19,631 bases of DNA from a virus (Duplodnaviria > Heunggongvirae > Uroviricota > Caudoviricetes), in the IMG/VR virus record IMGVR_UViG_2541047837_000004, one strand, 5' to 3'. Below, in pieces: positions 1-18,395 of this stretch. How positions within the stretch are numbered: position 1 is the stretch's first letter; every line of letters begins with the position of its first letter. Made by a program: the position numbers and the translations under genes. Below the pieces are notes generated by a model. That model did no database searches. It was not told the origin of the DNA and worked only from the letters and a program-made list of their open reading frames with translations.

Positions 1-318
1 ATGATGCAATCTGCGGGCATTGTCGTTAATGATGTTACTGTCACCTGGCGTAACGGGCACACAGCACTGCGCGATGCATCCTTCACAGTACCAAGTGGAT
101 CTATTGCCGCTCTGGTTGGGGTAAACGGTTCCGGAAAATCGACGTTGTTTAAAGCGATTATGGGATTTGTGCGTCTGACCAGCGGAAAGATATCTGTTCT
201 GGGTATTCCCACGCGACAGGCGCTACAGAAAAACCTGGTTGCCTACGTCCCTCAGTCAGAAGAGGTTGACTGGTCATTTCCTGTACTAGTGGAAGATGTG
301 GTGATGATGGGCCGCTAG
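1..318 (+). pseudogene. sitB: Mn/Fe ABC transporter ATP-binding protein SitB-like, 5' fragment (105 codons, then TAG)
   Basis: Translation begins [28 protein letters not shown] and contains Walker [10 protein letters not shown]; it stops after MMGR, whereas ABC ATPases of this family run to about 270 aa. Identity to SitB is from memory of the family. Confidence 0.65.
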
Positions 319-692
319 TCCACCAGCGCATGTGCCACACCATACTGAAATGCGAGACTGAAAAATTGCTGCGCCCACACATCCAGTCGGCTCCCCTCCA
401 TGTCGATATTTTCTGCATATTCCCTGATTTTTTCCGGCGTTTCCTCACTCAATACTGTCGGCTCTGCAAATATGCGCCCAATATTTTGTTTGATGCTTTC
501 TTCATACACAGGAAGTAGCGTAGCCACAGACAGGCGTTTTTTATAAGCGTCTTCATCTTCATTAGGCCATTTGGGGAGATAATTTTCCCCCTGCCTGCGC
601 ATTTCAAGCGTACCGCCCATCAATGCGTCGTTAATATCCCACGCCTCCAGCATATCGTTATAGTCGAGGTTGGGTGTTGATATATCAGCCAT
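315..692 (-). pseudogene. phage head-module protein, putative portal, N-terminal fragment (125 aa)
   Basis: ATG lies 2 nt after the terminase large subunit stop, the usual portal position. The ORF ends at TAG 317-315, overlapping the sitB TAG within CTAG. Portal identity is inferred from position only. Confidence 0.3.
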
Positions 693-694
693 AA

Positions 695-1996
695 TTAAAT
701 CCGAAGTGATGTGACTCTTCCGGTCGGTTTGACAATAGGGAATTGCTTAACGATGAAATAACCTCCGGCATCATTCGGGTGATCATTGCCAGATTTTTTA
801 TCAGGCTCCCCCTTATCATCCCAGACCTGTTGCTCCAGAGATTCGGCATATACCGGACAACGCTTCACATTAACTTTATAGCGACGCTCACCATTGGCAT
901 TGCAGAACATTGCATTCATTGAGTTAACGCGATCTTTTACTGGCGGGTTCGAGCTGTTCACCACAACGTTAAAACCAGCCTGCTTAAGCTGGGCTATATC
1001 CGTCGTACTTGCGTTACTTGATTTTCTGGAATCTCCGGAAGCATCTGGATAAATATAAATCTCCCTCACTTTCCGGTAATCATTCCCGTCATACAGCCAG
1101 AAGCGTTCTTTAATGATGCGGATCATATCCGGCGTATCGTAGGCATTGATGATTTCAGTTACCGCACATGGAAGCCCCAAACGCAGCACATGGACGATCC
1201 CCGCCATCTTTCCAACGTTAAAATCCATCCCAATATAAATCGGCTCCCCTGGCTGCTCCACTTCTTCGCAATTATTCAGTTTCCGGTCAAACTGATGGTA
1301 AACAGTACCACTTGTCAGGTTAGTAAACTGTCCTCGAAGATAGGCTTTAATCAGCTCTGGAGGGTATGATTCAAGAAGCGAAGGAATGTAATCTGCTGGC
1401 AGGTTCTTTTCATTATCGAAAGTAGATGCCTGCACCAGACCATACAGTGAGGCCAGCTCTGTTTTTTCACGCACGGCTTTAACAAACTGCTCGTAGACAA
1501 ATTTGAATCCTTCCGGCGTGGTTGTAACGTCAATACCGTTGCGAAGTCCATCAATCTTATAACGCATACGCGCAATTATCTTGCGCCACGCCGTTCTGGC
1601 TTTTTCCTTCGGCAAAATGTCCAGTTCATCCACCAGCGCATTACCAATTTTGAAACCGACGATCGTTTGTGGCTTCTCCATCGATCTGCAGATAGTGGTT
1701 CCCCGATACTGGCGTCCGTAATAAAAGTGAACCTCTTTATTTCCCTCATTAATTTTTACGTTCAATCCCCAGTCAGCAGCAACTTCTTCCACTGTAGGGT
1801 AAAAAATATCGCGAATTTGGGGATACGTTGGCGCAAAATATCCCTGATTTATACCTGGATGCTCCCAAATCCCCTTGCATATGCCGCCACACCCAACCCA
1901 TGTTTTGCCCGAGCCAAAACCAGCAATATAGGCTTTAAATTTATGGGGCATTGAAAGAAATCGCGCCTGAGGCACATTAAGCGTCGGAGAGATCAT
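695..1996 (-). CDS. phage terminase large subunit (ATPase/nuclease)
   Basis: Walker A motif AGFGSGKT near the N-terminus; about 433 aa. AAGGAG Shine-Dalgarno sits 9 nt upstream of the ATG at 1996; the ORF track start at 2005 is a GTG. Overlaps the small subunit stop by 20 nt. Confidence 0.8.
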   Translation of the reverse strand: MISPTLNVPQARFLSMPHKFKAYIAGFGSGKTWVGCGGICKGIWEHPGINQGYFAPTYPQIRDIFYPTVEEVAADWGLNVKINEGNKEVHFYYGRQYRGTTICRSMEKPQTIVGFKIGNALVDELDILPKEKARTAWRKIIARMRYKIDGLRNGIDVTTTPEGFKFVYEQFVKAVREKTELASLYGLVQASTFDNEKNLPADYIPSLLESYPPELIKAYLRGQFTNLTSGTVYHQFDRKLNNCEEVEQPGEPIYIGMDFNVGKMAGIVHVLRLGLPCAVTEIINAYDTPDMIRIIKERFWLYDGNDYRKVREIYIYPDASGDSRKSSNASTTDIAQLKQAGFNVVVNSSNPPVKDRVNSMNAMFCNANGERRYKVNVKRCPVYAESLEQQVWDDKGEPDKKSGNDHPNDAGGYFIVKQFPIVKPTGRVTSLRI

Positions 1997-3071
1997 CTTC
2001 ATCACTCCTTACTCTGGCATCAACCACATTAATATTGATCGCCACAGGCTGGGGATGTTCATTATCTTCCACCGTTTCGATCTCTTTGCGCAGCTTCTGG
2101 TTTTCCATTCTGCGTCGTTCAATTTCCAGTTCCTGTAGCCGCTTATCTGCACATAAAGCCCCGCCAGCAGAAAGCAAACGCAACAATTCACGCCGGGCGG
2201 CAGCCTTATCCTCCAGCAGGATCTCAACGCCGAATTTTCCGAGTTTTGCCCCTGCATATAATTGCCGCGCATCCCCATCAAGCAGAGTGGTATCAGCCAT
2301 ATAAAGCTGTCCCGTTCCCTCACCGCAGCACTTCGGGCAGTCCGGATTGGGTATGGCGTTATCAACAAAGCCGAGGCCTCCATATTCCGGTTCGGGTTTG
2401 CCATCTCTGGAAGCCTGCGCCGCTGCCTTGTCGAATTCTGCTATATCGCGCCACTGGTAGAGATGATTCTCGCCCCAGCAATAACGGCAGTTAACACGGC
2501 GAAATTGTGCAAGCTGATTGGGGTCGGCCAGGACAATAGCCATCAACTGACTCACTAGTAAATCCAGGTCTGCGGTATAGCGTTTCTGATACTGATTGCG
2601 GAAGTAGCTGATAGCGCGAAAAACCCTGGCATTTCTAAGCATACGACTGGCGTTGCTGTTAGCTGTCGCACCTTGCCCCTCATAACCGGCTAGTCGGTAC
2701 GCCTCTGTCGGCTTTTTACCCTGAGCAACAAGCATCGCAAACTTAGCCTGCTGGTCAGAAATGCCGAATTCATCGGGACAGAACGAAAATTCCTCCGCGT
2801 CGCCCTCATTCAGGCCCGCATCGAATACTGGCTTTTTTTCCTGAGATTTTTCGTTCCGCTTTTGTGCAGTCTGCGCAGATTTTTTCTGCGCACTTTTTTG
2901 CGCAGTTTTGCACATTTCTGTCTGCGCATTTTTCGGAGTTTTTTTGATGTAACGACGGGCTGTTGCGTAATTCAGTCCCCTTGCTTCACACCATGCCACC
3001 GGAGATATACCGGAGCGGGTGTATTCAGCAATATACTCCTGCTGCAACGCCCCCCAGTCCGGTCTGCTCAT
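1977..3071 (-). CDS. phage terminase small subunit (HTH N-domain, Cys-rich zinc-ribbon-like region)
   Basis: 364 aa immediately upstream of and overlapping the large subunit gene. N-terminal HTH-like segment, central segment typical of small terminase subunits (AKFAMLVAQGKKPTEAYRLAGYEG), and CRYCWGENH...CPKCCGEG cysteine cluster. AGGA Shine-Dalgarno upstream. Confidence 0.65.
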   Translation of the reverse strand: MSRPDWGALQQEYIAEYTRSGISPVAWCEARGLNYATARRYIKKTPKNAQTEMCKTAQKSAQKKSAQTAQKRNEKSQEKKPVFDAGLNEGDAEEFSFCPDEFGISDQQAKFAMLVAQGKKPTEAYRLAGYEGQGATANSNASRMLRNARVFRAISYFRNQYQKRYTADLDLLVSQLMAIVLADPNQLAQFRRVNCRYCWGENHLYQWRDIAEFDKAAAQASRDGKPEPEYGGLGFVDNAIPNPDCPKCCGEGTGQLYMADTTLLDGDARQLYAGAKLGKFGVEILLEDKAAARRELLRLLSAGGALCADKRLQELEIERRRMENQKLRKEIETVEDNEHPQPVAININVVDARVRSDEDDLSDA

Positions 3072-3074
3072 CAG

Positions 3075-3326
3075 TTAGTCCTGATTTTTATCCACCCTGA
3101 GTAGTTCGCGCAGAGCAAAGGCATCCCCTTTTCTGGCAAGCTTAAACAATGCCGCTCGTAACTCGGCTTCACCTTTCGCTCTGCCCTTACGGATGGCCGC
3201 ATAAAAATCTGTCATTGCTTCCCGATTTTCTTTCAGTCGGTTCAGATCAACATCCAGAACGTCAGCGATTTGTTGTGCAGTCATCCGGCACGCTGCCAGA
3301 GACTCGACTTTCGAATACGGAATCAT
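3075..3326 (-). CDS. small HTH-like protein (83 aa), function unknown
   Basis: ORF with GGGGGTGA Shine-Dalgarno 6 nt upstream of ATG 3326. Stop TAA lies 3 nt before the terS ATG. HTH-like segment MTAQQIADVLDVD. Overlaps the 3' end of the upstream gene by 65 nt. Confidence 0.4.
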   Translation of the reverse strand: MIPYSKVESLAACRMTAQQIADVLDVDLNRLKENREAMTDFYAAIRKGRAKGEAELRAALFKLARKGDAFALRELLRVDKNQD

Positions 3327-4194
3327 TTGTCACCCCCATTGATATGCAGGGTGTCTTCTTCCTGTATTTTTCGTGAAGGATTTTTACTGCAGCGTTGTTC
3401 CAGGTGACCTGATGGTGAATGCGTTTATGGCTGGCACCCATCAGTGAGATTTTTACGCACGACGGCGCATACATGACGGAGTAAAAACTTTTAACGTAGG
3501 TTCCGGAATCCAGATACAGCTCGGTCATTCCGCCGCTGTTTTTCTGCGTCTGTTTCTGCCCTAACTGGACAGCACCGATCGTCATAAACAATTCACCACA
3601 GCGACCGAGATTCGTGTACGTATTCACATCCTCGTTAATGCGCCCCATGAATGAGAACGGTCGATCAACCGAACAGATAAAGCTGTTCATTGCCTTGCGT
3701 TTCACCCACGAAGCATGGCCGCCATTGTCACCAAGAAAATCCCCGCCCTGCGACATAGCGATGGAAAGAGCAGGTATTGATTCGTAGTACGCCAGCATTT
3801 CAGAAAGGATCGCATCCAGTTTCCTTATCGGAAAATAGGCCTGGTCATAGTTGCGATCCACCCGAAACTGGAACTCGTGATAATCATCATCGAGCTGAAT
3901 GAAGTATTTACACCCGACCAGTTTTGCCAGGTCGAAACAGGCATTACGGGCGTAAAAAATTGAGCGGCGGTCACAGAAATTATCGGCTTCGTCAAAACGA
4001 CTGGCGATATCGGCTTTGGAAAACACCAGCACCTGTTCACCAAATTCAGCCATGTACTGATGCCGTGTCTTATCTTCATCATCAACAACGATAAAAATTT
4101 TCCCGGTATAGCCAGCACGACGCAACGTCCGGTAAGTCAGAACTTTGTCCGGTCGCCCGTGAGTCAGAATAAAGGCGCAAAAATCATCACGCAT
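3262..4194 (-). CDS. GT-A fold (GT2-like) glycosyltransferase-like protein, soluble
   Basis: Motifs FILTHGRPD and KIFIVVDDEDKT resemble the GT2 pattern (IIPTYNR ... EIIVVDDGS), followed by a DxD-like YFIQLDDDY. No obvious transmembrane segments. AGGAGGAGG Shine-Dalgarno before ATG 4194, which overlaps the ParB-like gene stop by 8 nt. Confidence 0.5.
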   Translation of the reverse strand: MRDDFCAFILTHGRPDKVLTYRTLRRAGYTGKIFIVVDDEDKTRHQYMAEFGEQVLVFSKADIASRFDEADNFCDRRSIFYARNACFDLAKLVGCKYFIQLDDDYHEFQFRVDRNYDQAYFPIRKLDAILSEMLAYYESIPALSIAMSQGGDFLGDNGGHASWVKRKAMNSFICSVDRPFSFMGRINEDVNTYTNLGRCGELFMTIGAVQLGQKQTQKNSGGMTELYLDSGTYVKSFYSVMYAPSCVKISLMGASHKRIHHQVTWNNAAVKILHEKYRKKTPCISMGVTNDSVFESRVSGSVPDDCTTNR

Positions 4195-4978
4195 ATTCCT
4201 CCTCCTCACCACCATGCATGATCTCCACCATGCGCTGCGTCATCCGGACAAATCCATTTTCAATAGCCTGCTGATAATCAATGATCACCAGCGCCGACTC
4301 CTCGAAAAAACACTGAATTTCAGCGGGGGCGTGAGCGTAATAGTCCGCAATTCTGCTGAAATTAAACACCGTGTGACGTTCTGCCGCACACAGGAGGAAT
4401 TTCTCAATATCAGGCTCAAGGGACGCCGAACGTATCCGGCTGATCAGCTCCTGAGTTTTCGTATCGTCGTACAGTTCACTGATATCCGGTTTACCGCCCG
4501 ACGGCTCATAAACAGGCGTATCAATTTTCGTCGTATACGGCTCCTCCTCATTTCCTGTACCGGGCAAAACATCCGTCAACAGTTCATCAATTTCTGTCGG
4601 GATGAAGCCTGTCAGGGAGACATCAAAATCAGCATTGATTAGGTCCGACAGCTCCATCCGCAACAGATCTTCATCCCAGCCAGCATTCATCGGCAGGCGA
4701 TTATCTGCCAGGCGGTACGCCTTTTTCTGCTCATCCGTCAGGCCAGACAGAACAATGACCGGAACAGAATCCATTTTGAGCATTTCAGCCGCCATAACAC
4801 GACCGTGACCCGCAATAATTTCGCCCTTTTCGTCAATCAGCACCGGATTAGTCCAGCCGAATTGCTTAATACTTTCTACCAGTTGTGCCACCTGCTCAGT
4901 ACTGTGCGTCCTGGCGTTGTGCGCATACGGTGACAATTCTTGTAATGGGCGATAGACTATCTTTAATTTCTCGCTCAT
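4187..4978 (-). CDS. ParB-like nuclease domain protein
   Basis: N-terminal ParB/Srx-like motifs (YAHNARTHS, VLIDEKGEIIAGHGRVMAA, VPVIVL); acidic C-terminus; 263 aa. Confidence 0.75.
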   Translation of the reverse strand: MSEKLKIVYRPLQELSPYAHNARTHSTEQVAQLVESIKQFGWTNPVLIDEKGEIIAGHGRVMAAEMLKMDSVPVIVLSGLTDEQKKAYRLADNRLPMNAGWDEDLLRMELSDLINADFDVSLTGFIPTEIDELLTDVLPGTGNEEEPYTTKIDTPVYEPSGGKPDISELYDDTKTQELISRIRSASLEPDIEKFLLCAAERHTVFNFSRIADYYAHAPAEIQCFFEESALVIIDYQQAIENGFVRMTQRMVEIMHGGEEEEYA

Positions 4979-5115
4979 ACAGCCTTGCTTTATGAATAAA
5001 ACGCACCCCAGCAGCCAGTGCTACTGGGGACTGAGGTGTTGCTGGTAAAGTTAGGTATTGGATCAATGAGTGAGTCAACATAATATTAAACTCACAATTA
5101 TAAATCAGCCATATA

Positions 5116-6573
5116 TTAGGAGCGCCAAAAAAAACCTGAAAACAATATAATAACAGGATAAATTTCAAGGCGACCAAGAATCATAGCTATGCACATTAAA
5201 CATTTTGCAATGTCATTAAGCACTCCGAATGACGATGCAGTAGCCCCAAAACCTAATCCCATATTATTAATACATGCAGCCACTGTTGCAAATGATGTAA
5301 GAAAATCATATCCCATACCATTTAACACCAGTATAAAAAACACCGTGAAGAGAGTATAAAGAAAAAAGAAACTCCATACAGACCTCATTACACGATCTGT
5401 AACTATCTTCCCTCCTACATTTACACTCAACAACGCTCTGGGATGAGAAAGCTGATTTATCTCGTGTTTGCTTTGTTTGAAAAGTATAAGAAATCGAAGT
5501 GACTTAATTCCACCACAAGTTGAACCTATACATCCCCCAAAGAAACTTGACAACAGCAAAAACACTATCGTGTGCGTGGGCCAACTTACATAATCCTGCG
5601 TAGCTAGACCATTATCAGTGAGCATGGAGCTGGCAAGAAAAAACGAATGAATAAAACTTCCATGCAAGTCATACATACCTATATGCCAGACCTGGAAAGA
5701 GGTAACAATGATCACCCCTAAGGCTATTAACAGAAAGAAACGAAGTTCAATATCTCTGATTAAAGGTTTTATCGTTTTCCTGCTAATAACAATATACCAA
5801 AGAGTGAAGTTGAAAGCCGATAGCAGGGAAAAAGAACCAGCCACCAGCTCAACCAAATAGTTATTAAAATATCCGATACTCTCGCTATGAGTTGAGAAAC
5901 CACCAAGCGAAACTGTGGAAATCCCGTGACAAATAGCATCAAACAAAGACATTCCTGCAAGTCTATAACAGACAATACAAGCAATACCTAATAAAGAATA
6001 AGTTATCCACAGTGTCCGTGACGTATCGGCCAGGCGGGGAGTGAGTTTGTCATCCTTAAATGGCCCCGGCATTTCTGACTGATAAAGCTTTGCACCACCA
6101 ATACCCAATAATGGCAATACAGCAACCGCCAGAACAATAACTCCTAAACCACCTATAAAATTTAACTGTGACCGATAGTACAAATATGCCCGAGGTAATG
6201 AACTAACATCATCAATTACAGTTGCTCCTGTTGTTGTTATTCCAGAAACCCCTTCAAACAGAGCATCAATGAACGTTAAATTAAGTTCTGAGTCAATCCA
6301 TAAAGGGAATGCACTAATAACAGAAAACAAAATCCAAAACATTACAATTATAATAAACCCATCACGGGTACGTAATTGAATGCCAGATTTCTTAGTTGTA
6401 TACCACGCTCCGCCACCAATGCAAAAAAATATAACGAAAGTTATAAAGAAAACGAACAGGCTTTTTTCTTTATAAAACAATGCTACAACCATTGGTGGCA
6501 ACATTGAAAGACTATAGAGCCAAACCAGGAACCCACACATATGAGTAACAACTCTTACATGAGATGTATTCAT
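5116..6573 (-). CDS. trkG: Trk system potassium uptake protein TrkG
   Basis: Polytopic membrane protein of about 485 aa from MNTSHVRVV, with repeated GGxG-type selectivity-like segments. The gene is markedly AT-rich relative to its flanks. Matches recalled Rac prophage TrkG. Confidence 0.9.
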   Translation of the reverse strand: MNTSHVRVVTHMCGFLVWLYSLSMLPPMVVALFYKEKSLFVFFITFVIFFCIGGGAWYTTKKSGIQLRTRDGFIIIVMFWILFSVISAFPLWIDSELNLTFIDALFEGVSGITTTGATVIDDVSSLPRAYLYYRSQLNFIGGLGVIVLAVAVLPLLGIGGAKLYQSEMPGPFKDDKLTPRLADTSRTLWITYSLLGIACIVCYRLAGMSLFDAICHGISTVSLGGFSTHSESIGYFNNYLVELVAGSFSLLSAFNFTLWYIVISRKTIKPLIRDIELRFFLLIALGVIIVTSFQVWHIGMYDLHGSFIHSFFLASSMLTDNGLATQDYVSWPTHTIVFLLLSSFFGGCIGSTCGGIKSLRFLILFKQSKHEINQLSHPRALLSVNVGGKIVTDRVMRSVWSFFFLYTLFTVFFILVLNGMGYDFLTSFATVAACINNMGLGFGATASSFGVLNDIAKCLMCIAMILGRLEIYPVIILFSGFFWRS

Positions 6574-6710
6574 ATCTAAATATTCTTTCAATTATAACCA
6601 CCTTGCTGCAATATTATGATTATACTGTATAAAATTTAACTCCTCTTAGATCTTACTTCACTGTTCCTTATGAAACAATCATCAAAATGAATCATATTGT
6701 AGTTAAGATT

Positions 6711-7175
6711 TTACTTTAAACACTGCTCGGTTATGTATTGCTGAGCACCTTCAAGTTGGGCCTGCATCATTACCAGTCGTTCCCGGAGGGTGAAATAATC
6801 CCGTTCAGCGGTGTCTGCCAGTCGGGGGGAGGCTGCATTATCCACGCCGGAGGCGGTGGTGGCTTCACGCACTGACTGATAGACTGCTTTGATGTGCAAC
6901 CGACGACGACCAGCGGCAACATCATCACGCAGAGCATCATTTTCAGCTTTCGCATCAGCTAACTCCTTCGTGTATTTTGCATCGAGCGCAGCAACATCAC
7001 GCTGACGCATCTGCATGTCAGTAATTGCCGCGTTCGCCAGCTTCAGTTCTCTGGCATTTTTGTCGCGCTGGGCTTTGTAGGTAATGGCGTTATCACGGTA
7101 ATGATTAACAGCCCATGACAGGCAGACGATGATGCAGATAACCAGAGCGGAGATAATCGCGGTTACTCTGTTCAT
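6711..7175 (-). CDS. rzpR: i-spanin Rz
   Basis: [38 protein letters not shown] closely resembles lambda Rz as recalled. ATG overlaps the endolysin stop (ATGA). Confidence 0.85.
6770..6955 (-). CDS. rzoR: o-spanin Rz1 lipoprotein (embedded in Rz, +1 frame)
   Basis: 61 aa, lipobox VVGC, proline-rich [16 protein letters not shown], lying wholly inside the Rz ORF in another frame. Confidence 0.8.
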
Positions 7176-7669
7176 TGCTGACCCCACAAACAGATTTCAC
7201 GCTCAATCTCACGACGAGTCATGAGACCTTTCCATTGCTTACCGCCAGCATATGTCCAGCGACGTAGCTGATCACATGCGCCTTTGATATCGCCCTGGTT
7301 TATTTTGCGAAGAAGCGTCGATGTTCTGAAATTGCCAGCACCCACGTTGTAAACGAATGAGTAAAGAGCGCCGCGCGTTGTTTCCGGTATATCGACTTTG
7401 ATGTACGGGTTAATTTGTCTGGCGACAGTGGCAAGGTCTTTATTCAAGAGTGTTTTGCATTCTGCTTTGGTATACGTTTTACCGAGCATGATGTCTTTTC
7501 CTGTATGCCCGTGACATACAGTCCATACACCAACAATATCTTTGTATGGTATGTAGCTGACACCTTCCAGACCATCGTTACCACTTGGGCCAGTGATTAA
7601 CACTGATGCTATAGCAATTGCTCCGCCACCAATAGCAGCAGCAACGACTTTTCGTAATGATGGAGGCAT
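7172..7669 (-). CDS. SAR endolysin (P21 R-like lysozyme)
   Basis: 165 aa with a Gly/Ala-rich N-terminal signal-anchor-release segment ([21 protein letters not shown]) and a lysozyme-like body; closely resembles phage 21 endolysin as recalled. Confidence 0.9.
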
Positions 7670-7884
7670 TATTCACCTCTCGCAGCCTTGCGCTTATCTT
7701 CTTTAATCTTGAAATAAAGGTTTGTCAGGTACGTCAGCAGGCCAAATACCAGACTACCCAGCACACCGATTGCAGCCCACTGTGACGGAGTTACTCTATC
7801 GAGCAACTGTAAAAACCAGTAGCCAGCACTGCCTGCGGAGGTGCCGTAGGCAATGCCTGTTGAAATTTTGTCCATGGATTTCAT
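7669..7884 (-). CDS. pinholin (S21-like) with dual-start motif
   Basis: [26 protein letters not shown]...: Met-Lys-Ser-Met dual start (ATG at 7884 and 7875) with GGAGGTGA Shine-Dalgarno; two transmembrane segments; 71/68 aa. Stop overlaps the endolysin ATG. Confidence 0.85.
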
Positions 7885-7980
7885 AGCCTCACCTCCGCAC
7901 GGAACGGATGGCATAGTTATTATGTGTAGGCTTTCAGACACATCAATCAGAGCCTTAATTGATATATATGCTGGAGACGA

Positions 7981-8010
7981 TGCAATATAAAAAGCTCGCC
8001 GTAGCGAGCT
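7981..8010 (-). terminator. intrinsic terminator downstream of lipoprotein gene 1
   Basis: Hairpin AGCTCGC-cgta-GCGAGCT at 7993-8010, followed on the minus strand by UUUUAUAUU. Confidence 0.45.
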
Positions 8011-8135
8011 AATAAAATGTATTTCTCTGATATTATATTTATTTGTATTAGCTCAGACTTGACATCACAGGTTTCGTATATAGAACATCATCAAATCTGT
8101 CAGTTTGCTATGAATGAGATATAGTAATTGAAGAG

Positions 8136-8531
8136 CTAACCTCGCATGTCAAAGCCAGATTTCTGAAAATCTCTGTAGACTTCCGGATTGTTGAAGGCCG
8201 GAAATTTGGCTTTATGAGCTGCGGACTTTATCGCTTCGCAATAGGCTTTATCACCGTTACTGGTAGATATTTTTAACGCCGTGCCATCCTGAGAGAATTC
8301 CATATGCAACCTGCATTTTTTCCCTTTCCAGTTATGCGGCTCATCAAGTTTGGCATTAATTGCAGCTCTGATTCCCCGCGCTTGCGCCCCCCATTCATCC
8401 TGATCATCCCAGCGTCCTGAACTGCAACTACCTGTAGCAGTAGTTTTGTGGCAATCTGAAGGGTGTAAAGGTGTGCATCCCGTAACAAAACCGACCCAAA
8501 AAGTCAACATAACGATTTTCTTTAATCCCAC
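8136..8531 (-). CDS. lipoprotein with TolA domain III-like C-terminal domain
   Basis: GTG start with GAGGAG Shine-Dalgarno; signal peptide MGLKKIVMLTFWVGFVTGC with lipobox and Thr at +2. C-terminus KKCRLHMEFSQDGTALKISTSNGDKAYCEAIKSAAHKAKFPAFNNPEVYRDFQ parallels the TolA C-terminal domain as recalled. Confidence 0.65.
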   Translation of the reverse strand: MGLKKIVMLTFWVGFVTGCTPLHPSDCHKTTATGSCSSGRWDDQDEWGAQARGIRAAINAKLDEPHNWKGKKCRLHMEFSQDGTALKISTSNGDKAYCEAIKSAAHKAKFPAFNNPEVYRDFQKSGFDMRG

Positions 8532-8681
8532 TTCTTGCTCCTCAATCCATTAAAATCTCAGCAATAGTAGTTGTTACGTCCGCCACTGGCTCAGAGCTGA
8601 CTATCCGCTAAATTTAGCTCAGTGCCGTAGCTGTGTCAGAACAAACCTAAGCCGAAACCGTTTATTACAAAACAATAAATA

Positions 8682-9110
8682 TCAGGGTTTAAAATCCAGC
8701 ACCCCATTTTGAAATACTTTATATACTTCCGGCGAAGGGGGGGCAGGTATATCAGCATTCTTTATCGCATTCATCGCTTCACGACATAAATCGAGGTCTC
8801 CACTTTCTCTTTTAACCTCCAGTAGAAGGCCATTCGGGGCCATATGCATTCTCAGTGTACACTCTTTTCCTGAATACTTACTCGCATCCCCGAACTGTTT
8901 TTCGATGGCGCTCTTGATTTGATGGGCATACAGACGGATATCCTCACTAACATCAGAAGTACGTTCAGATGAACTCACATACTGTGTCTCTATTGCTTTA
9001 TCGGAGTAATATGATGTACGGTCATGATAATTTGTCGATACAGCATCAGTGCACCCGATAATAATCCCACTAATAATCAACGTAAGAATTGATGCGCTAC
9101 GAAAACCCAT
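8682..9110 (-). CDS. lipoprotein with TolA domain III-like C-terminal domain
   Basis: Signal peptide with lipobox IIGC and Thr at +2. C-terminal 80 aa (QIKSAIEKQFGDASKYSGKECTLRMHMAPNGLLLEVKRESGDLDLCREAMNAIKNADIPAPPSPEVYKVFQNGVLDFKP) align residue for residue with recalled E. coli TolA C-terminus (...GKTCTLRIKLAPDGMLLDIKPEGGDPALCQAA...PPSQAVYEVFKNAPLDFKP). Confidence 0.75.
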   Translation of the reverse strand: MGFRSASILTLIISGIIIGCTDAVSTNYHDRTSYYSDKAIETQYVSSSERTSDVSEDIRLYAHQIKSAIEKQFGDASKYSGKECTLRMHMAPNGLLLEVKRESGDLDLCREAMNAIKNADIPAPPSPEVYKVFQNGVLDFKP

Positions 9111-9139
9111 TTTTCCTCACATATGTCATATAGTAAAGG

Positions 9140-9169
9140 ATTATATATACCGTTGTTTTGGACGCTCAA
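9140..9169 (-). promoter_or_regulatory. sigma70-like promoter for lipoprotein gene 2
   Basis: Minus strand reads TTGAGC, 18-nt spacer, TATAAT, about 25 nt upstream of the ATG at 9110, which has a GAGGAAAA Shine-Dalgarno. Confidence 0.35.
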
Positions 9170-9698
9170 ACAGCGAATCAGATCAAATAAAACGCACATT
9201 TGTTAACATTTACACAAAGTCTGCGTGGGATATTCTGAAAGAATATCCATAATGTGGAGAGAATCTATTGAAGTGCATGGTGCCGGGTGCCTCCCGGTGA
9301 ACAAAATGTTCGTGATACCTGTCGGCGACAGAAAAGGTTAATGGTATCACCCCACCGCACAGGGGGATTCACCATGCAGGAGTTTTCTTAGCAAACTCAC
9401 TGCGCGCCCGGCAACTCCCAACCACATAAAATGCGGAGTTTGTGGCATTTATGCATATAACTAGCAGGAATTATCTTAAAAAACTGATGTCGATCCGGAT
9501 TAAAAAGAAGCAGGTCATCATCAGATGACTGGAAAAAAGGAAAACAAAAAATACTCATCATACAGTTTTGATTGCAGGGATGAGCCTGCTATGCACAATA
9601 TGCAGAATATAAGCAAGATAAAAATATGCAGGCATATTATTTCGGATTTTGTTATTAACACAACCTTTTTAATAATCATTTGGCATACAATAAACCAG

Positions 9699-9727
9699 CC
9701 CAAAAAGAACCGCCTAAACAGGCGGTT
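9699..9727 (-). terminator. intrinsic terminator (second of a tandem pair)
   Basis: Stem AACCGCC-taaaca-GGCGGTT at 9708-9727, followed on the minus strand by CUUUUUGGG. Confidence 0.45.
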
Positions 9728-10047
9728 GGTCAATACAAAGGATGCTTCGTCTTTATTATAGTAATCTGAGGCGTCGGGTGTCTTGTATCAGACAACATAT
9801 TGTCCCGCTAAACAGCGAATTACAAACCACCCTGCAATGATCTCTCATCTCATTTTATATGAGTTGACGACATCAGGATAACGCATCATCAGCCCCTGCC
9901 AAGAAATATCAAAACTCCCGCCAGCAATGTGTTATCACAATATTGTAAAAAAAACACAGCACCGAAACTATAACTGGTCTCTGTTATAATTTGGAGCAGA
10001 AAGACCAGTTGCCCAATTAGCAGCATTCTCCCCTGCTTTCCTGACGT

Positions 10048-10075
10048 AAAAAAACCGCATTAAGCGGTTTTTTTA
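10048..10075. terminator. bidirectional intrinsic terminator
   Basis: AAAAAAACCGC-attaa-GCGGTTTTTTT: GC stem flanked by an A-run and a T-run, so it is functional on either strand. It lies about 80 nt downstream of the 153-aa ORF stop on the minus strand. Confidence 0.6.
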
Positions 10076-10154
10076 CGATGTCCATGTCTGCAATCCGCCT
10101 CGCGATACAGCTTTGCGAAGCATAGCAAAATTGAAGCAGTTTATACGTAAGAAA

Positions 10155-10616
10155 TCAAGCCATTTTCTCAGCGAATGATTCTCGCATGGGAATGTATAGC
10201 GCATACTCAGCAACGGCCAACCAATTAGCAATTCGCTTTTCGCATGTGCTAAAACACCACTCTGGGTGTGCATCATTTAGCAATTCAGCCATTTTGCGTT
10301 TGGTCATCCCCCGCCCCTCATACCGTTGCCGAAGGACGCTAATCAATCCTGGATGCTCTGCCAGCACCTCACTTATGACCCGATCAATACATAACGCCTC
10401 TGCATCAGTACAATGCGCCAGCCAGCTCTTTTGCTTACCGTTAATCATATCCCGCAAAAAAGCCTCAAGTTCAGACTTGTTCAGACCTGCTTTTTTCATC
10501 CTCCGGAGCGCCTCGTTAATTGCCGTTTTTGTCAGCTTTTTAGAGGCCAACAACTGGTTGAACATATTCCCCGTCTTTCCGGTAAACGGCTTGGACTGCA
10601 TCATCATGCGCATCAA
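10155..10616 (-). CDS. hypothetical protein, candidate late-gene regulator (Q-like by position only)
   Basis: Last ORF of the leftward early operon, directly upstream of the tandem terminators and the lysis region. Four Cys (C-x6-C, C-x4-C). Start is uncertain: Met codons at 10616, 10601 and 10565, the last with a purine-rich Shine-Dalgarno. Overlaps ydaT by 26-77 nt. Confidence 0.45.
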   Translation of the reverse strand: MMRMMMQSKPFTGKTGNMFNQLLASKKLTKTAINEALRRMKKAGLNKSELEAFLRDMINGKQKSWLAHCTDAEALCIDRVISEVLAEHPGLISVLRQRYEGRGMTKRKMAELLNDAHPEWCFSTCEKRIANWLAVAEYALYIPMRESFAEKMA

Positions 10617-10947
10617 TTGCCGTACTTAACGCTTCCTGCGCCGCCAGTAATGCACGGCGTTCCAGGGTATCGAAGATGCAGAGTCGGTGACGCAGCTCGC
10701 GCGGAAGGATTGCCAGAATTGCTGGGATCAGCTTCTGAATTTTTTCTCTTTGCGTTTTCGTTTCACCTTTCAACCAACGGTGATAGATATTCTGCTGATT
10801 GTTCCAGTCCTTGCCTGGAACCAGGGGCAATTCGCCGCCCCCCTGGCGCAGATATTCTTCAGTAATTGCATTGGCTACCCATGCCTGCCCTTTTTCGGCT
10901 GCTAGGGCAAACAACACTGATTCGATGTGCTCATGCTTGATTTTCAT
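10540..10947 (-). CDS. ydaT: Rac prophage protein YdaT
   Basis: MKIKHEHIESVLFALAAEKGQAWVANAITEEYLRQ... matches recalled Rac YdaT; immediately downstream of ydaS. Confidence 0.8.
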   Translation of the reverse strand: MKIKHEHIESVLFALAAEKGQAWVANAITEEYLRQGGGELPLVPGKDWNNQQNIYHRWLKGETKTQREKIQKLIPAILAILPRELRHRLCIFDTLERRALLAAQEALSTAIDAHDDAVQAVYRKDGEYVQPVVGL

Positions 10948-10969
10948 GAATCATTTGCCTCTTGATGTT

Positions 10970-11266
10970 TCAGGTATGATCAAATGAGGATTTGTTACTG
11001 TCATTTAGTTGCTTCACTGACATATTCTGCGAACAACATGCCGAACGTCGTAAATATGACCAGTCAATATCAGGACGAAGTTCTTCGCACAGAACCTCAC
11101 CTCTTGTTGCACGTTCAATTGCTGGACATCTCTCGGCAGGCAATTGACGTACCCCTTTGATCCATTGATTTACGCTTGGAGGTGATACACCTAAAAGCCT
11201 AGCCATTGCTGATTGCCCACCGACAACAGCACAAGCTTGCTTGAATGAATAGTTCTCATTTTTCAT
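10970..11266 (-). CDS. ydaS: Cro-like HTH regulator YdaS
   Basis: 98 aa, MKNENYSFKQACAVVGGQSAMARLLGVSPPSVNQWIKG (HTH); diverges from racR; TGGAG Shine-Dalgarno. Confidence 0.85.
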   Translation of the reverse strand: MKNENYSFKQACAVVGGQSAMARLLGVSPPSVNQWIKGVRQLPAERCPAIERATRGEVLCEELRPDIDWSYLRRSACCSQNMSVKQLNDSNKSSFDHT

Positions 11267-11292
11267 CGAATGAACTCCAAAAACACACAGAA

Positions 11293-11322
11293 ATATTAGG
11301 CGACGCCTAACGCAATTGTCAA
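11293..11322 (-). promoter_or_regulatory. PR-like promoter with palindromic operator (drives ydaS-ydaT)
   Basis: Minus strand reads TTGACA (11322-11317), 18-nt spacer, TAATAT (11298-11293). Perfect 15-bp palindrome TTAGGCGaCGCCTAA at 11296-11310 overlaps the spacer and -10. Confidence 0.4.
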
Positions 11323-11389
11323 TAGGCTGTGCCTAATGCGGTAAGGGTAGGGATTGCCTAATGTAATGCGCATAGGAGAATATTAAGCA

Positions 11390-11866
11390 ATGCTTAGTGG
11401 TAAAGACTTAGGCCGAGCGATAGAGCAGGCCATTAACAAAAAAATCGCATCGGGATCCGTCAAATCAAAGGCGGAGGTCGCACGCCACTTCAAAGTCCAA
11501 CCACCATCAATTTATGACTGGATTAAGAAAGGCTCTATAAGTAAAGATAAACTTCCAGAATTATGGCGTTTCTTTTCTGATGTTGTTGGTCCAGAGCATT
11601 GGGGGCTTAACGAATACCCCATACCAACCCCCACCAATTCAGATACAAAAAGTGAACTTTTAGATATAAACAACCTTTATCAAGCAGCCTCTGATGAAAT
11701 AAGAGCGATTGTAGCTTTCCTGTTATCTGGAAATGCTACAGAACCAGATTGGGTTGACCACGATGTTCGCGCCTACATAGCAGCGATGGAAATGAAAGTG
11801 GGTAAGTATCTGAAAGCTCTAGAATCTGAACGGAAAAGCCAGAACATCACAAAAACTGGAACTTAA
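11390..11866 (+). CDS. racR: Rac prophage repressor RacR
   Basis: 158 aa, MLSGKDLGRAIEQAINKKIASGSVKSKAEVARHFKVQPPSIYDWIKKG (HTH); AGGAG Shine-Dalgarno 10 nt upstream; divergent from ydaS. Confidence 0.9.
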   Translation: MLSGKDLGRAIEQAINKKIASGSVKSKAEVARHFKVQPPSIYDWIKKGSISKDKLPELWRFFSDVVGPEHWGLNEYPIPTPTNSDTKSELLDINNLYQAASDEIRAIVAFLLSGNATEPDWVDHDVRAYIAAMEMKVGKYLKALESERKSQNITKTGT

Positions 11867-11976
11867 ACTTATATGGTCTGACGGAAAACTCCTGGATTCC
11901 GTTATTTAACCCCCCCATCACTTTCTGCTGTCGCCATCACCTATTAGGTTACGCTCAAAACATTAGGCATAGCCTA

Positions 11977-12005
11977 TTGACAATCAATTAGGCATTACCT
12001 ATAGT
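11977..12005 (+). promoter_or_regulatory. PL-like promoter with operator-like motif (drives ydaG onward)
   Basis: TTGACA (11977-11982), 17-nt spacer containing ATTAGGCAT, TATAGT (12000-12005). It sits in a 24-bp element that is the inverted repeat, with one mismatch, of 11314-11337. Confidence 0.4.
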
Positions 12006-12174
12006 TCCAGCATACCACCCACCCCGCCCCACAGAACGCCGGGCAATACTTCGAGTTACCAGGCAGTGGTAAGGGGTTAAGTAGCCAGCCCGAGGCGTAT
12101 GAACATGACGGCGGGATTCAAATTTTGCAGTGCAGCAGTTAGTTCCGCCACCCGGCGTTAAGGGGAGAGATAAG

Positions 12175-12309
12175 ATGGTGCATTACGAAGTAGTTCAGTA
12201 TTTGATGGATTGTTGCGGTATCACTTACAACCAGGCTGTGCAGGCTTTACGCAGCAACGACTGGGATCTCTGGCAGGCAGAAGTCGCTATACGTAGCAAC
12301 AAGATGTGA
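12175..12309 (+). CDS. ydaG: small Rac protein YdaG (44 aa)
   Basis: ORF MVHYEVVQYLMDCCGITYNQAVQALRSNDWDLWQAEVAIRSNKM with GGGGAGAG Shine-Dalgarno; too short for the ORF track; matches recalled YdaG. Confidence 0.55.
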   Translation: MVHYEVVQYLMDCCGITYNQAVQALRSNDWDLWQAEVAIRSNKM

Positions 12310-12319
12310 GATTCGCAAA

Positions 12320-12475
12320 ATGCAAAAAATCGACCTCGGCAACAACGAATCCCTGGTGTGCGGCGTGTTCCCCAACCAGGATGGAACGTTCACTGCCATG
12401 ACGTATACCAAAAGCAAAACATTTAAAACCGAAACTGGTGCGCGCCGATGGTTGGAGAAGCACACAGTAAGCTAA
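12320..12475 (+). CDS. ydaF: small Rac protein YdaF (51 aa)
   Basis: ORF MQKIDLGNNESLVCGVFPNQDGTFTAMTYTKSKTFKTETGARRWLEKHTVS; stop is convergent with the sieB stop. Confidence 0.55.
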   Translation: MQKIDLGNNESLVCGVFPNQDGTFTAMTYTKSKTFKTETGARRWLEKHTVS

Positions 12476-12960
12476 CGATTAAAACGTCTACTCCTGCTGT
12501 TCCAGAATAACTTCATAAAATGGGAGTATTTTTCGGTGACGAGATAATAAGAACAGTTTGCGCTATCACTCTGATGTTGAATGATGCCCTTCCGTTCTAA
12601 TTTTTTCATAACCGGGTTACGGCAAGGAGAAGTGATAATAAGATTTCCTGTTTTAAGGAAATCTTTAAATACAGCGATTTCTTTCTCAGATAAACGAAGC
12701 AATACTCGTTGCTCTGGTAGTAATGAATAATGCTTTTGAATATGTGCTCGCAATCTTGAGAAGGAAATGGCGACCACGAAAGAAAAGGCAAAAACGATAA
12801 TCTGAAAGAGCCAAGGTATTTCAGTATAAGCATTGAATGCGACAGTAAACTCTTTCGGTATCAGCCAGAGAGTGAGACCAAAAATGATAATCGTATACAT
12901 AAGTCTTTCGAGTGGCTCGTTAGCAAAAAGTTTCAACAATGGAGTAAATACATCCAACAT
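12472..12960 (-). CDS. sieB: superinfection exclusion protein SieB
   Basis: 162 aa from MLDVFTPLLKLFANEPLERLMYTIIIFGLTLWLIPKEF, with an N-terminal membrane segment. The ORF track extends it upstream to 13083, but the recalled SieB starts at this internal Met. Confidence 0.85.
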   Translation of the reverse strand: MLDVFTPLLKLFANEPLERLMYTIIIFGLTLWLIPKEFTVAFNAYTEIPWLFQIIVFAFSFVVAISFSRLRAHIQKHYSLLPEQRVLLRLSEKEIAVFKDFLKTGNLIITSPCRNPVMKKLERKGIIQHQSDSANCSYYLVTEKYSHFMKLFWNSRSRRFNR

Positions 12961-13401
12961 ATCAATAACTCTCAACTGTAAGGGTATTGAAATGTTAACA
13001 CAAGCTCTCGCTGTAGGGGTATAGCCGAGACCACCGAAGCCCGGAGGTGGTGAAATAAAACCGGGCACAACACGAAGGCGCATTTCCGATATCCATAAAG
13101 AGTCGGTCTTGTCTGTTAAATTTAAATGGTGGGAGTGCGCCTCCGGTTGTAAATAACGACATTGCTGTGTGTAGTCCTGGCGGCATCAGTTTTTTTCTTG
13201 AAGTTCGGCTGATGTCCGCCCTTTTTAAAGTGAATTTTGTGATGCGGTGAATGCGGCTAAGCGCACGTGGCACAGTTAAAAGTCATGTTAGTCCTTATTG
13301 GTTTGGGTGGGAAAGCCGACTGTAATTGTTAACTGGTTGCAGTCACCTGGAGGCACCAGACACCGCATCAACAAAGTTCATTTGTAAAAATGGAGATAAT
13401 T

Positions 13402-13623
13402 ATGATTGCACATCACTTCGGAACTGATGAAATACCACGTCAGTGTGTGACTCCTGGCGATTATGTTCTTCATGAAGGCCGGACATATATTGCCTCGGCA
13501 AACAATATTAAAAAGCGAAAACTATATATTCGTAACCTGACCACAAAAACATGCATTACTGACCGCATGATTAAAGTCTTCCTCGGTCGTGATGGTTTAC
13601 CTGTAAAGGCGGAGTCATGGTGA
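13402..13623 (+). CDS. kilR: cell division inhibitor KilR
   Basis: 73 aa [40 protein letters not shown]...; GGAG Shine-Dalgarno 5 nt upstream of ATG 13402. Confidence 0.85.
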
Positions 13624-13793
13624 TGACTAAGAAAATAAAATGTGCTTACCACCTTTGCAAAAAAGACGTTGAAGAAAGCAAAGCTATTGAAAGAATGCTT
13701 CACTTCATGCACGGGATTTTATCAAAAGACGAACCGAGAAAATATTGCAGTGAAGCTTGTGCCGAAAAAGACCAGATGGCACATGAACTTTAA
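13623..13793 (+). CDS. ydaE: small Cys-rich Rac protein YdaE (56 aa)
   Basis: [59 protein letters not shown]; its ATG overlaps the kilR stop. Confidence 0.6.
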   Translation: MTKKIKCAYHLCKKDVEESKAIERMLHFMHGILSKDEPRKYCSEACAEKDQMAHEL

Positions 13794-13867
13794 TTAATTG
13801 ACTATTCGAAACTGAATTTATGCCAGAAATGGCAGGTATTCGCTCAACCTTAATTAAGGAGAAAAAC

Positions 13868-14143
13868 ATGATTACCAATTATGAAGCCACTGTTGTAACT
13901 ACCGATGACATTGTTCACGAGGTGAATCTGGAAGGAAAGCGCATTGGCTACGTAATTAAAACAGAAAATAAAGAAACCCCATTCACTGTGGTTGATATCG
14001 ATGGTCCATCAGGCAACGTAAAAACACTTGATGAAGGTGTCAAAAAAATGTGCCTGGTGCATATCGGAAAGAATCTGCCCGCAGAAAAAAAAGCCGAATT
14101 TCTGGCAACTCTAATTGCAATGAAATTAAAAGGTGAAATCTGA
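13868..14143 (+). CDS. racC: Rac prophage protein RacC
   Basis: 91 aa from MITNYEATVVTTDDIVHEVNLEGKR; AGGAG Shine-Dalgarno upstream. Confidence 0.8.
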   Translation: MITNYEATVVTTDDIVHEVNLEGKRIGYVIKTENKETPFTVVDIDGPSGNVKTLDEGVKKMCLVHIGKNLPAEKKAEFLATLIAMKLKGEI

Positions 14144-14148
14144 AAGAA

Positions 14149-14173
14149 ATAGCCTGCGTATGGCGCAGGCTAT
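14149..14173. other. GC-rich hairpin between racC and recE
   Basis: Perfect 10-bp inverted repeat ATAGCCTGCG-tatgg-CGCAGGCTAT beginning 6 nt after the racC stop. Confidence 0.4.
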
Positions 14174-14244
14174 GAACAGTGTGTATCCGGCAAGATCATT
14201 CACTGAACAAAACGAATTTTAATCTGAGTTGAGGTTAAAAAACA

Positions 14245-16845: not shown

Positions 16846-17647
16846 GCAACCACCAATCGCAAAAGCCGATCTGCAAAAAACTCAGGGAAACCGTGCACCA
16901 GCAGCAGTTAAAAATAGCGACGTGATTAGTTTTATTAACCAGCCATCAATGAAAGAGCAACTGGCAGCAGCTCTTCCACGCCATATGACGGCTGAACGTA
17001 TGATCCGTATCGCCACCACAGAAATTCGTAAAGTTCCGGCGTTAGGAAACTGTGACACTATGAGTTTTGTCAGTGCGATCGTACAGTGTTCACAGCTCGG
17101 ACTTGAGCCAGGTAGCGCCCTCGGTCATGCATATTTACTGCCTTTTGGTAATAAAAACGAAAAGAGCGGTAAAAAGAACGTTCAGCTAATCATTGGCTAT
17201 CGCGGCATGATTGATCTGGCTCGCCGTTCTGGTCAAATCGCCAGCCTGTCAGCCCGTGTTGTCCGTGAAGGTGACGAGTTTAGCTTCGAATTTGGCCTTG
17301 ATGAAAAGTTAATACACCGCCCGGGAGAAAACGAAGATGCCCCGGTTACCCACGTCTATGCTGTCGCAAGACTGAAAGACGGAGGTACTCAGTTTGAAGT
17401 TATGACGCGCAAACAGATTGAGCTGGTGCGCAGCCTGAGTAAAGCTGGTAATAACGGGCCGTGGGTAACTCACTGGGAAGAAATGGCAAAGAAAACGGCT
17501 ATTCGTCGCCTGTTCAAATATCTGCCCGTATCAATTGAGATCCAGCGTGCAGTATCAATGGATGAAAAGGAACCACTGACAATCGATCCTGCAGATTCCT
17601 CTGTATTAACCGGGGAATACAGTGTAATCGATAATTCAGAGGAATAA
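16838..17647 (+). CDS. recT: recombinase RecT (single-strand annealing protein)
   Basis: 269 aa from [18 protein letters not shown]; matches recalled RecT. The ORF track start at 16781 is an upstream in-frame ATG inside recE. Confidence 0.95.
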
Positions 17648-17703
17648 TTCAGCCTGGCGGTGTAATGCACCGCCAACTTGAAATATTTTTTATGAGAAAA
17701 ATT

Positions 17704-17898
17704 ATGAGATATGACAATGTTAAACCATGTCCATTTTGTGGTTGTCCATCAGTAACGGTGAAAGCCATTTCAGGATATTACCGAGCGAAGTGTAACGGAT
17801 GCGAATCCCGAACCGGTTATGGTGGAAGTGAAAAAGAAGCACTCGAAAGATGGAATAAACGAACCACTGGAAATAATAATGGAGGTGTTCATGTATAA
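17704..17898 (+). CDS. ralR: restriction alleviation protein RalR (Lar)
   Basis: 64 aa MRYDNVKPCPFCGCPSVTVKAISGYYRAKCNGCESRTGYGGSEKEALERWNKR, with four-Cys zinc-ribbon-like spacing. Confidence 0.85.
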   Translation: MRYDNVKPCPFCGCPSVTVKAISGYYRAKCNGCESRTGYGGSEKEALERWNKRTTGNNNGGVHV

Positions 17899-18100
17899 AA
17901 TTACCGCCACTATTGAAAAGGAAGGTGGCACTCCTACTAACTGGACAAGATATTCAAAATCTAAACTAACGAAATCAGAATGCGAAAAAATGCTCTCAGG
18001 TAAAAAAGAAGCAGGCGTTTCCAGAGAGCAGAAAGTAAAACTGATAAATTTTAATTGCGAGAAACTTCAGTCCTCGAGAATTGCATTGTATTCAAATTAA
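17891..18100 (+). CDS. ydaC: Rac prophage protein YdaC
   Basis: 69 aa from MYKITATIEKEGGTPTNWTRYSK; GGAGG Shine-Dalgarno; overlaps the ralR stop by 8 nt. Confidence 0.8.
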   Translation: MYKITATIEKEGGTPTNWTRYSKSKLTKSECEKMLSGKKEAGVSREQKVKLINFNCEKLQSSRIALYSN

Positions 18101-18178
18101 AACTTCATAGCTGATTATTAATAATCAACATCGGGCGTCAATTTCAGTCTAACATTGGCGCCTGCCAGAGGTGATGCG

Positions 18179-18394: not shown

Positions 18395-18395
18395 T

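Follow-up and report, generated by a model that had tools for sequence, protein, structure and literature searches.

A 24,380-bp deletion between the portal and sitB genes of a Rac-type prophage ends beside a Chi site in Escherichia coli

Why should two genes on opposite strands end in one and the same tetranucleotide? This question is raised by a 19,631-nucleotide stretch of viral DNA (IMG/VR record IMGVR_UViG_2541047837_000004; hereafter the window, at its full length), in which an open reading frame (ORF) similar to sitB, the gene for the ATP-binding subunit of the Sit transporter, and an ORF similar to a phage portal gene share a single CTAG at 315-318, the two stop codons being its two strands. 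The initial annotation had described this geometry with exact coordinates. It had proposed that one deletion truncated both genes at a single junction and removed further sit genes together with the phage head and tail genes, an artefact being the alternative. The window differs from Escherichia coli LR-64-2 (NZ_AP027595.1, 789517-809147) at 2 of 19,631 positions and, therefore, comes from a very close relative of that strain or is another assembly of the same clone. Comparison with related prophages indicated that the window very probably holds the scar of one 24,380-bp deletion in a Rac-type prophage inserted at ttcA, with sitABCD as its far-end cargo.

The intact arrangement was found in E. 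coli 042 (NC_017626.1), where the prophage reads ttcA-intR...terS-terL-portal (468 aa)-minor head-scaffold-capsid-...-tape measure-gpJ-lom-tail fibres and continues past the tail fibres as sitD-sitC-sitB (275 aa)-sitA-uspF. When both flanks of the junction were aligned to this sit locus and prophage, as the initial annotation had suggested, window positions 1-317 corresponded to sitB and positions 316-1000 to the portal gene, with 99.7-100% identity and a 2-base overlap (TA) that places the breakpoint at 316-317. The 24,380 bp of 042 that lie between these sites are absent at the window junction (record 1558165-1582544, +/- 2 shared bases). They comprise 24 whole annotated genes and parts of two, namely the remainder of the portal gene, every head, tail and tail-fibre gene, sitD, sitC and sitB codons 106-275, which is the loss that had been supposed; sitA is intact. 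The parental sites in 042, ...GGGCCGC-TA-TGGGCAC in the sitB sense and ...GGTGGAC-TA-TCCACGG in the portal sense, have only TA in common, and at the junction the sitB sequence passes straight into portal sequence, with no insertion sequence (IS) element or longer repeat. As had been suspected, neither ORF is naturally short: the intact relatives have 275 and 468 aa and do not end at the junction residues, and the portal gene keeps at least 80% of its length in 730 of the 755 complete genomes that carry it. No evidence weighs against the deletion itself.

The way in which the two ends were joined accounts for the coincident stops. The sequence at window 305-327 is ...ATGGGCCGCTAGTCCACCAGCGC..., and the join sits in the TA of a tyrosine codon TAT in both genes (Tyr106 of sitB and Tyr126 of the portal gene). 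The alignment shows a fusion of portal codon 125 to sitB codon 105, in antisense, through the 2-bp TA microhomology. Because each retained end reads C-TA, each gives the third-base G of the other strand, and both ORFs acquire TAG. Once TA is joined at codon positions 1-2 in each gene, the odds that both gain a stop are approximately 1 in 4, and the shared double stop is a by-product of the join with no signal in itself.

Family models were consistent with two remnants. The sitB ORF matched only positions 1-105 of the 274 positions of the SitB model NF011630 (216.9 bits for a cut-off of 393), short of a full-length match; intact 042 SitB (275 aa) matched positions 1-273 with 589.6 bits. Its set of ABC transporter motifs is incomplete, with Walker A (GVNGSGKST) kept and both the signature LSGGQ and the Walker B ILLDEP, which lie beyond residue 105, deleted, and only positions 1-70 of the 137 in Pfam ABC_tran were matched. 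It is the remnant of an NF011630 family member rather than a functional member. The portal ORF, directly downstream of terL, matched positions 7-130 of the 493 in phrog_145 (E 1.4e-44), and its intact 468-aa relative matched positions 7-481 (E 2.5e-165) and carries PF13264 (DUF4055). Its position after terL is that of a portal gene, full-length homology is lacking, and this ORF is a portal remnant. The prophage is no longer able to form particles, and this copy of the Sit transporter is dead.

The portal-side end of the deletion lies next to a Chi site. Just inside the retained portal DNA is an exact octamer, and the minus strand across the break reads GCTGGTGG-AC-TA and then enters sitB-derived DNA, the portal DNA ending 2-4 nt (at most 4) 3' of Chi. 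The cuts made by purified RecBCD lie 4-6 nt 3' of the octamer, mostly 3' of nucleotides 4, 5 and 6 (PMC5041463), and the kept ends, ACTA or ATTA depending on the deletion (see below), finish no more than 4 nt past Chi, with the microhomology allowing 1-4 or 2-4 nt. This Chi was present in all 126 intact portal loci. The 50-kb prophage of 042 has five Chi sites on that (top) strand and none on the other; similarly, the three in the window (320-327, 1630-1637 and 5841-5848) are all on the minus strand, where 0.5 would be expected and 4 of 200 shuffles reach three. For a random endpoint in the 50-kb prophage, the chance of lying 2-6 nt 3' of a Chi in the correct orientation is about 5e-4. The codons that contain this Chi, GCGCTGGTGGAC, encode A-L-V-D, and a synonymous form, GCACTCGTCGAC, encodes the same residues.

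The same portal base was also the endpoint of other deletions. The join reads GGACTAGCGGCCC in all the loci with the sitB junction (class A). In class B (L008, L012 and the IMG/VR locus L136), GGTGGATTA is followed by AAGGCG, that is, ATTA is joined to AAGGCG; 2,055 bp are gone through a TA microhomology, the far end lies near the end of the minor-head gene, and the prophage lineage is ~95% identical to 042. In class C, from a prophage beside bioA in the complete genome of E. coli BKQWHE, GGTGGACTA is followed by ACGGGA (ACTA joined to ACGGGA); here CTA is shared with the partner, a tail-fibre gene of which strain WAT has an intact copy. The class C product is the second of two common 125-aa variants, which were present on 85 and 70 contigs (70 for that of class C). 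A 3' end ...GCTGGTGGA(C/T)TA-3' fits all three classes. At least two further independent deletions, in other prophage lineages and with other partners, break at the same portal base. Homology to 042 ended at 54 distinct positions among ~150 related loci, and the portal site alone had a Chi within the last 20 nt and three different continuations. A DnaA-box-like sequence in the class B lineage (TTATCCACG) was considered as a cause and was unsupported by the partner sites.

Complete genomes gave a further view of this site. Three of them have its left side and lack its right side: LR-64-2 and BKQWHE, in which the break is at Chi+4 and without IS, and EA13. The portal gene of EA13 (L143) is cut by IS1 27 nt before Chi+4 and that of strain I3 (L144) by IS1 92 nt after it; ydfK-ynaM-uspF then follow without sit genes, as IS1-mediated deletions at the same locus. 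Discontinuities in the 400 nt around the portal Chi were detected in seven complete genomes, and the four that were identified are these same strains, LR-64-2, BKQWHE, EA13 and I3. Separately, a protein of 1,262 aa (P0010) has ~396 N-terminal portal residues fused in frame to the tail-tip protein J, and it marks a further large deletion from head to tail genes in a related prophage, one that ends elsewhere.

We infer that the junction arose by illegitimate, microhomology-mediated joining of processed DNA ends. Its shared bases (TA only) lie within the 1-9 nt expected of end joining, and neither a longer repeat nor a mobile element is present. The route could be the RecBCD- and LigA-dependent alternative end joining of E. 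coli (Chayot et al. 2010, in the account given by PMC12714560) or a microhomology-primed replication restart that leaves the same scar. Our leading explanation for the phage-side endpoint is that it was set by RecBCD at the Chi at 327-320, to which we give a probability of roughly 45%. A double-strand end would form in the morphogenesis or cargo region, in DNA that is now lost; RecBCD would enter there, resect toward the terminase genes and recognise this Chi, leaving a RecA-loadable 3' tail at Chi+4, ...GCTGGTGGACTA-3'. If this tail did not invade a homologue, its terminal TA could pair with a TA that lies either in the other processed end or in a gap farther along, and the paired ends would be filled in and ligated. 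The far endpoint would stay unfixed because no Chi faces the other way in the prophage. This would account for the two further deletions that share the portal base and have other far ends, and it agrees with one fixed endpoint and three varied ones. Tentatively, the portal endpoint might even record the RecBCD cut at Chi+4 as made in living cells, preserved by end joining on three or more separate occasions in natural E. coli.

Several observations weigh against a role of Chi. The link depends on one site and was spotted post hoc. In most intact portal genes another Chi in the correct orientation lies 468 bp into the lost DNA, and some few genes have one at +61; both count against the assignment because RecBCD arriving from afar would reach them first. 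Neither at the +468 Chi nor at the terL Chi were truncations found among 92 and 77 loci (IMG/VR and collected loci), but these samples are too small to carry weight, as the hot spot itself was truncated in only 1 of 71 IMG/VR loci. The 3' flank of the portal Chi, T, C and C at nucleotides 5-7, is of a kind that lowers nicking in vitro (PMC5041463). Ascertainment also matters, since class B was recovered through a look-up of the exact 125-aa product, which can yield nothing but deletions that share this endpoint; class C came from an independent BLAST search. Finally, the breakpoints lie within the loop of a small palindrome, GTGGA-CTA-TCCAC, with a 5-bp stem, and recurrent endpoints also occur where there is no Chi.

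These last points favour another explanation, in which the deletion is real, the Chi is coincidental and the portal TA is hot through a general TA-biased (YTA-TC) break-and-join process or through the mini-palindrome. We consider this quite plausible, with somewhat less than an even chance of being correct. Against 042, 15-17 classes of IS-free deletion junctions in Rac-like prophages were catalogued. TA or CTA microhomology was present in 8 of 17 classes, when about 3.5% was expected (P about 4e-8); once recurrent sites were collapsed, the count was 4 of 13 (P about 8e-4). On the strand with its 3' end at the junction, the lost side began with TC in 6 of 12 unique TA-type ends, for an expected 9.6% (P about 4e-4). 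A CTAG in terS (window 2690-2693; 042 record 1555787-1555790) was the shared right endpoint of three deletions (L058, L126 and L007), which used TA or CTA joins and whose left partners, in the ParB-like and TAGT genes, all differ; it lies in a near-palindrome, ACCGAC-TA-GCCGGT, with no Chi nearby. Two more deletions (L121 and L128) had a common left endpoint after ...CCCTTGA in the ParB-like gene (042 1554064), with GA as microhomology, no Chi and right partners 1.5 kb apart. The TA/TC pattern points to a sequence-biased process independent of Chi and, together with the recurrent endpoints that lack Chi, argues that a sequence-biased cutting or joining step is at work, to which Chi may only add at the portal site.

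Other facts are harder to reconcile with a coincidental Chi. The prophage contains 212 YTATC sites, and the one used three times lies exactly 4 nt 3' of Chi (chance about 5e-4). In all three classes the Chi side was kept and the DNA on its 3' side, from which RecBCD recognises Chi, was lost. As for the palindrome, a 5-bp stem is far shorter than the palindromes known to be cleaved in vivo, and the fold of the region around the break was unremarkable (z = -0.56), so a hairpin or other secondary structure was rejected as the cause in spite of the mini-palindrome. Apart from the question of endpoints, the catalogue showed seven different deletions (L007, L009, L026, L058, L121, L126 and L128) that took the 5' part of terS together with the glycosyltransferase gene and have 042 1554377-1555496 in common; the module may be selected against, or breaks may arise locally, for example at a pac site.

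The presence of TA at the join in all six junctions of the two TA hot spots also brings to mind a TA-specific transposase of the IS630/Tc1-mariner type, or some other mobile element, that made the deletions and then left without trace. CTAG is a preferred target of IS630, and one of the hot spots is at CTAG, which is found 14 times in the 50-kb prophage of 042 versus 194 expected. We regard this explanation as very improbable. No IS or IS end was found at the junctions, none abuts the window junction as an IS-mediated adjacent deletion would leave it, and none occupied these sites in the ~130 loci examined, intact or rearranged; the IS truncations that were found, those by IS1 in EA13 and I3, still have the element at the junction and lie at other positions. 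Insertion and precise loss would be required in each lineage, the lost segments lack common terminal inverted repeats, and the partner sites did not support an IS630 target as the cause.

Recurrence could instead reflect selection for the exact 125-aa portal fragment, for instance as a decoy against superinfecting phages. All three classes do end in an immediate stop (TAG, TAA and TAA) and yield the same 125-aa product, whose two variants are both widely represented, as described above. This reading is very unlikely. Once the join is at the TA of a TAT codon, three immediate stops have a chance of ~1 in 8, and selection cannot supply identical nucleotide endpoints. Moreover, it would be expected to favour nonsense and frameshift fragments of varied lengths, none of which was present among the listed cluster members, and the recovery of class B via the exact product biases the comparison toward identical products.

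Even less credible is an aberrant site-specific recombination by the Rac Int/Xis system or a phage invertase, or a homologous recombination between repeats. The prophage does retain intR and xisR intact, and a 2-bp crossover is what serine recombinases use. The parental sites, however, share TA and nothing to either side, far from the tens of bases that homologous recombination of the RecA/RecET type would need, and no common recognition sequence was found among the partner sites of classes A, B and C, so that invertase sites were also unsupported as a cause. In addition, the junction is 19 kb from the att end and the annotation of the 042 prophage contains no invertase gene.

The distribution of the junction bears on whether it exists in living strains. 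Among 5,426 complete E. coli genomes, the exact junction was present only in LR-64-2, where RefSeq already labels both genes 'incomplete; partial in the middle of a contig', and it was not found in scans of metagenome and species-representative collections; a look-up of the TerL context returned intact prophages only. Three metagenomic loci (L030, L041 and L051) that matched a 20-nt pattern were rejected as further junction classes, since their upstream sequence was unrelated to portal and the matches were due to chance. The exact 125-aa product was present in 133 blocks of a public-assembly index, and it has also been recorded from E. coli HVH 209. Of 24 contigs that were read, from NCBI isolates, an ENA metagenome assembly and Logan run assemblies, about 21 show the 125-aa product and then the 105-aa sitB stump, sitA, uspF and ompN. 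Two loci with this junction (L007 and L009) carry differing extra deletions upstream, indicating that the junction is older than some of the diversification of the lineage; it is inherited within an E. coli lineage. The artefact of assembly, cloning or construction that the initial annotation had kept as an alternative has a negligible probability and is excluded by an annotated complete genome and many independent assemblies, which agree across projects, sequencing types and assemblers and include lineage-specific secondary deletions adjoining the junction and at least the two near-identical assemblies of the window and LR-64-2.

The entire window is a defective Rac prophage that runs from the sitB remnant, at its cargo end, through the integrase gene intR (Table 1). 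Its genes are ordered as sitB remnant, portal remnant, terL, terS, a TAGT-like glycosyltransferase gene, truncated ynaK, trkG, lysis genes, racR/ydaS/ydaT, sieB, kilR, racC, recE, recT, ralR, rcbA, xisR and intR. In the LR-64-2 stretch, RefSeq adds two hypothetical genes between terS and the partial ynaK, and TolA-like genes and a DUF1133 remnant between the lysis genes and ydaT. The flanks in LR-64-2 are sitA-uspF-ompN on one side and ttcA directly after intR on the other, and the integration next to ttcA, together with intR/xisR and the recET-racC-kilR-sieB-racR-ydaST-trkG set, identifies a Rac prophage. The two differences from LR-64-2 are at window 5032 (T/G) and 14466 (A/G). The glycosyltransferase upstream of terS matches the TET-associated glycosyltransferase family PF20691 (E 3.8e-35) and adjoins the ParB/Srx-like ynaK. 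A second internal deletion, at window about 10575-10581, has removed ~5.6 kb relative to 042 with AAG as microhomology and joined the DUF1133 remnant to ydaT; ydaU, ydaV and their neighbours queH, hokD, DUF1367 and DUF1364 are gone, and the prophage has therefore also lost its replication genes. Window 7896-10096 has no counterpart in the 042 prophage. In LR-64-2 its annotation comprises a protein with a TolA C-terminal domain and a partial tolA-like gene; it looks like a module swapped in between the lysis genes and the DUF1133 remnant.

Table 1. Features of the window and their coordinates.
Feature	Position	Strand	Description
sitB pseudogene (remnant)	1..318	+	105 codons (MMQSAG...VVMMGR) of the 275-codon SitB ATP-binding subunit; junction-made TAG 316-318
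Portal pseudogene (remnant)	315..692	-	codons 1-125 (MADIST...AHALVD) of the 468-codon portal (DUF4055/phrog_145); junction-made TAG 317-315
CTAG produced by the join	315..318	.	stop codon for both ORFs
Deletion junction	316..317	.	shared 2-bp microhomology TA
Chi site	320..327	-	5'-GCTGGTGG-3', exact octamer, just inside kept portal DNA
terL, intact large terminase subunit	695..1996	-	directly upstream of the portal remnant; holds the Chi at 1630-1637 (minus)
terS, intact small terminase subunit	1977..3071	-	
Glycosyltransferase / ParB/Srx-like region	3262-4215 and 4187-4978	-	
Defective Rac prophage	1..19631	.	near-identity to the annotated LR-64-2 stretch

Defective Rac prophages, sit cargo, deletion pseudogenes, Chi-directed cutting by RecBCD and microhomology end joining are already established, and the junction by itself is ordinary prophage decay; the lead is its recurrence next to Chi and the TA bias. 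The Chi by the break, the recurrent portal endpoint and the Rac identity of the window go beyond the initial annotation. We found no report of natural deletion endpoints fixed at Chi+4 in the searchable literature, outside which key papers lie, and we claim no priority; nor did we find a paper there that treats sitABCD and a Rac prophage together. The junction explains why, in this lineage, the Rac remnant is dead for packaging and the sit operon of the chromosome is dead, and it matters for annotation and for the scoring of virulence markers, given that sitA is intact here and the transporter is not. If the role of Chi were general, Chi would fix one boundary of spontaneous deletions and the other would float, with few Chi sites facing the opposite way; together with the YTA-TC bias, this would amount to a sequence rule for the breakage of prophages and other dispensable DNA in genome decay, and it would provide natural evidence for the position of the RecBCD cut in living cells. 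Three stops at the same base and the TA bias suggest that, if this holds, end-processing enzymes determine the boundaries of deletions in E. coli, which are then not random; this would be relevant to research on recombination and genome reduction.

Comparison with known systems places the window among Rac prophages in decay. It shares with the Rac prophage of E. coli K-12 the ttcA site and intR, xisR, ralR, recET, racC, kilR, sieB, racR, ydaS/T, trkG and ynaK, and both are defective remnants shaped by internal deletions. The deletions of K-12 Rac are different and its tail-fibre genes are retained; to our knowledge, it has no sit genes. In contrast to K-12 Rac, the window remnant keeps terS, terL and 125 portal codons, has lost the rest up to sitB in one event and also lacks replication genes through its second, 5.6-kb deletion. 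The intact Rac-like prophage of 042, with sitABCD, has the full structure and is 98-100% identical to the window flanks; the window lacks 24,380 bp of that structure. Carriage of sitABCD as a prophage moron has been described in LF82, in the sit-bearing prophage Perceval (PMC9928086). In APEC O1 (L003, NC_008563.1 1513719-1521584), the cargo between tail fibre and uspF consists of cdtABC (cytolethal distending toxin IV), an omptin gene and an integrase remnant, with sit present only as a frameshifted permease remnant; the cargo end of these Rac-like prophages is highly variable.

The IS1 deletions of EA13 and I3 resemble that of the window in that the head-to-tail region is gone and an N-terminal portal stump stands beside uspF-proximal DNA, but they keep IS1 at the junction, whereas the window junction is free of IS. 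Alternative end joining in E. coli is similar in its IS-free deletions, its microhomology of 2-3 bp and its resection over kilobases. Chi-dependent nicking by RecBCD (Taylor, Amundsen and Smith 2016, PMC5041463) is matched in the exact octamer, its orientation and a kept 3' end that lies at most 4 nt beyond Chi, where cuts have been mapped at 4, 5 and 6 nt and 4 nt is the shortest distance. It differs in outcome, since recognition of Chi usually leads to RecA loading and faithful homologous repair, and not to a deletion such as the one that joined the portal gene to sitB.

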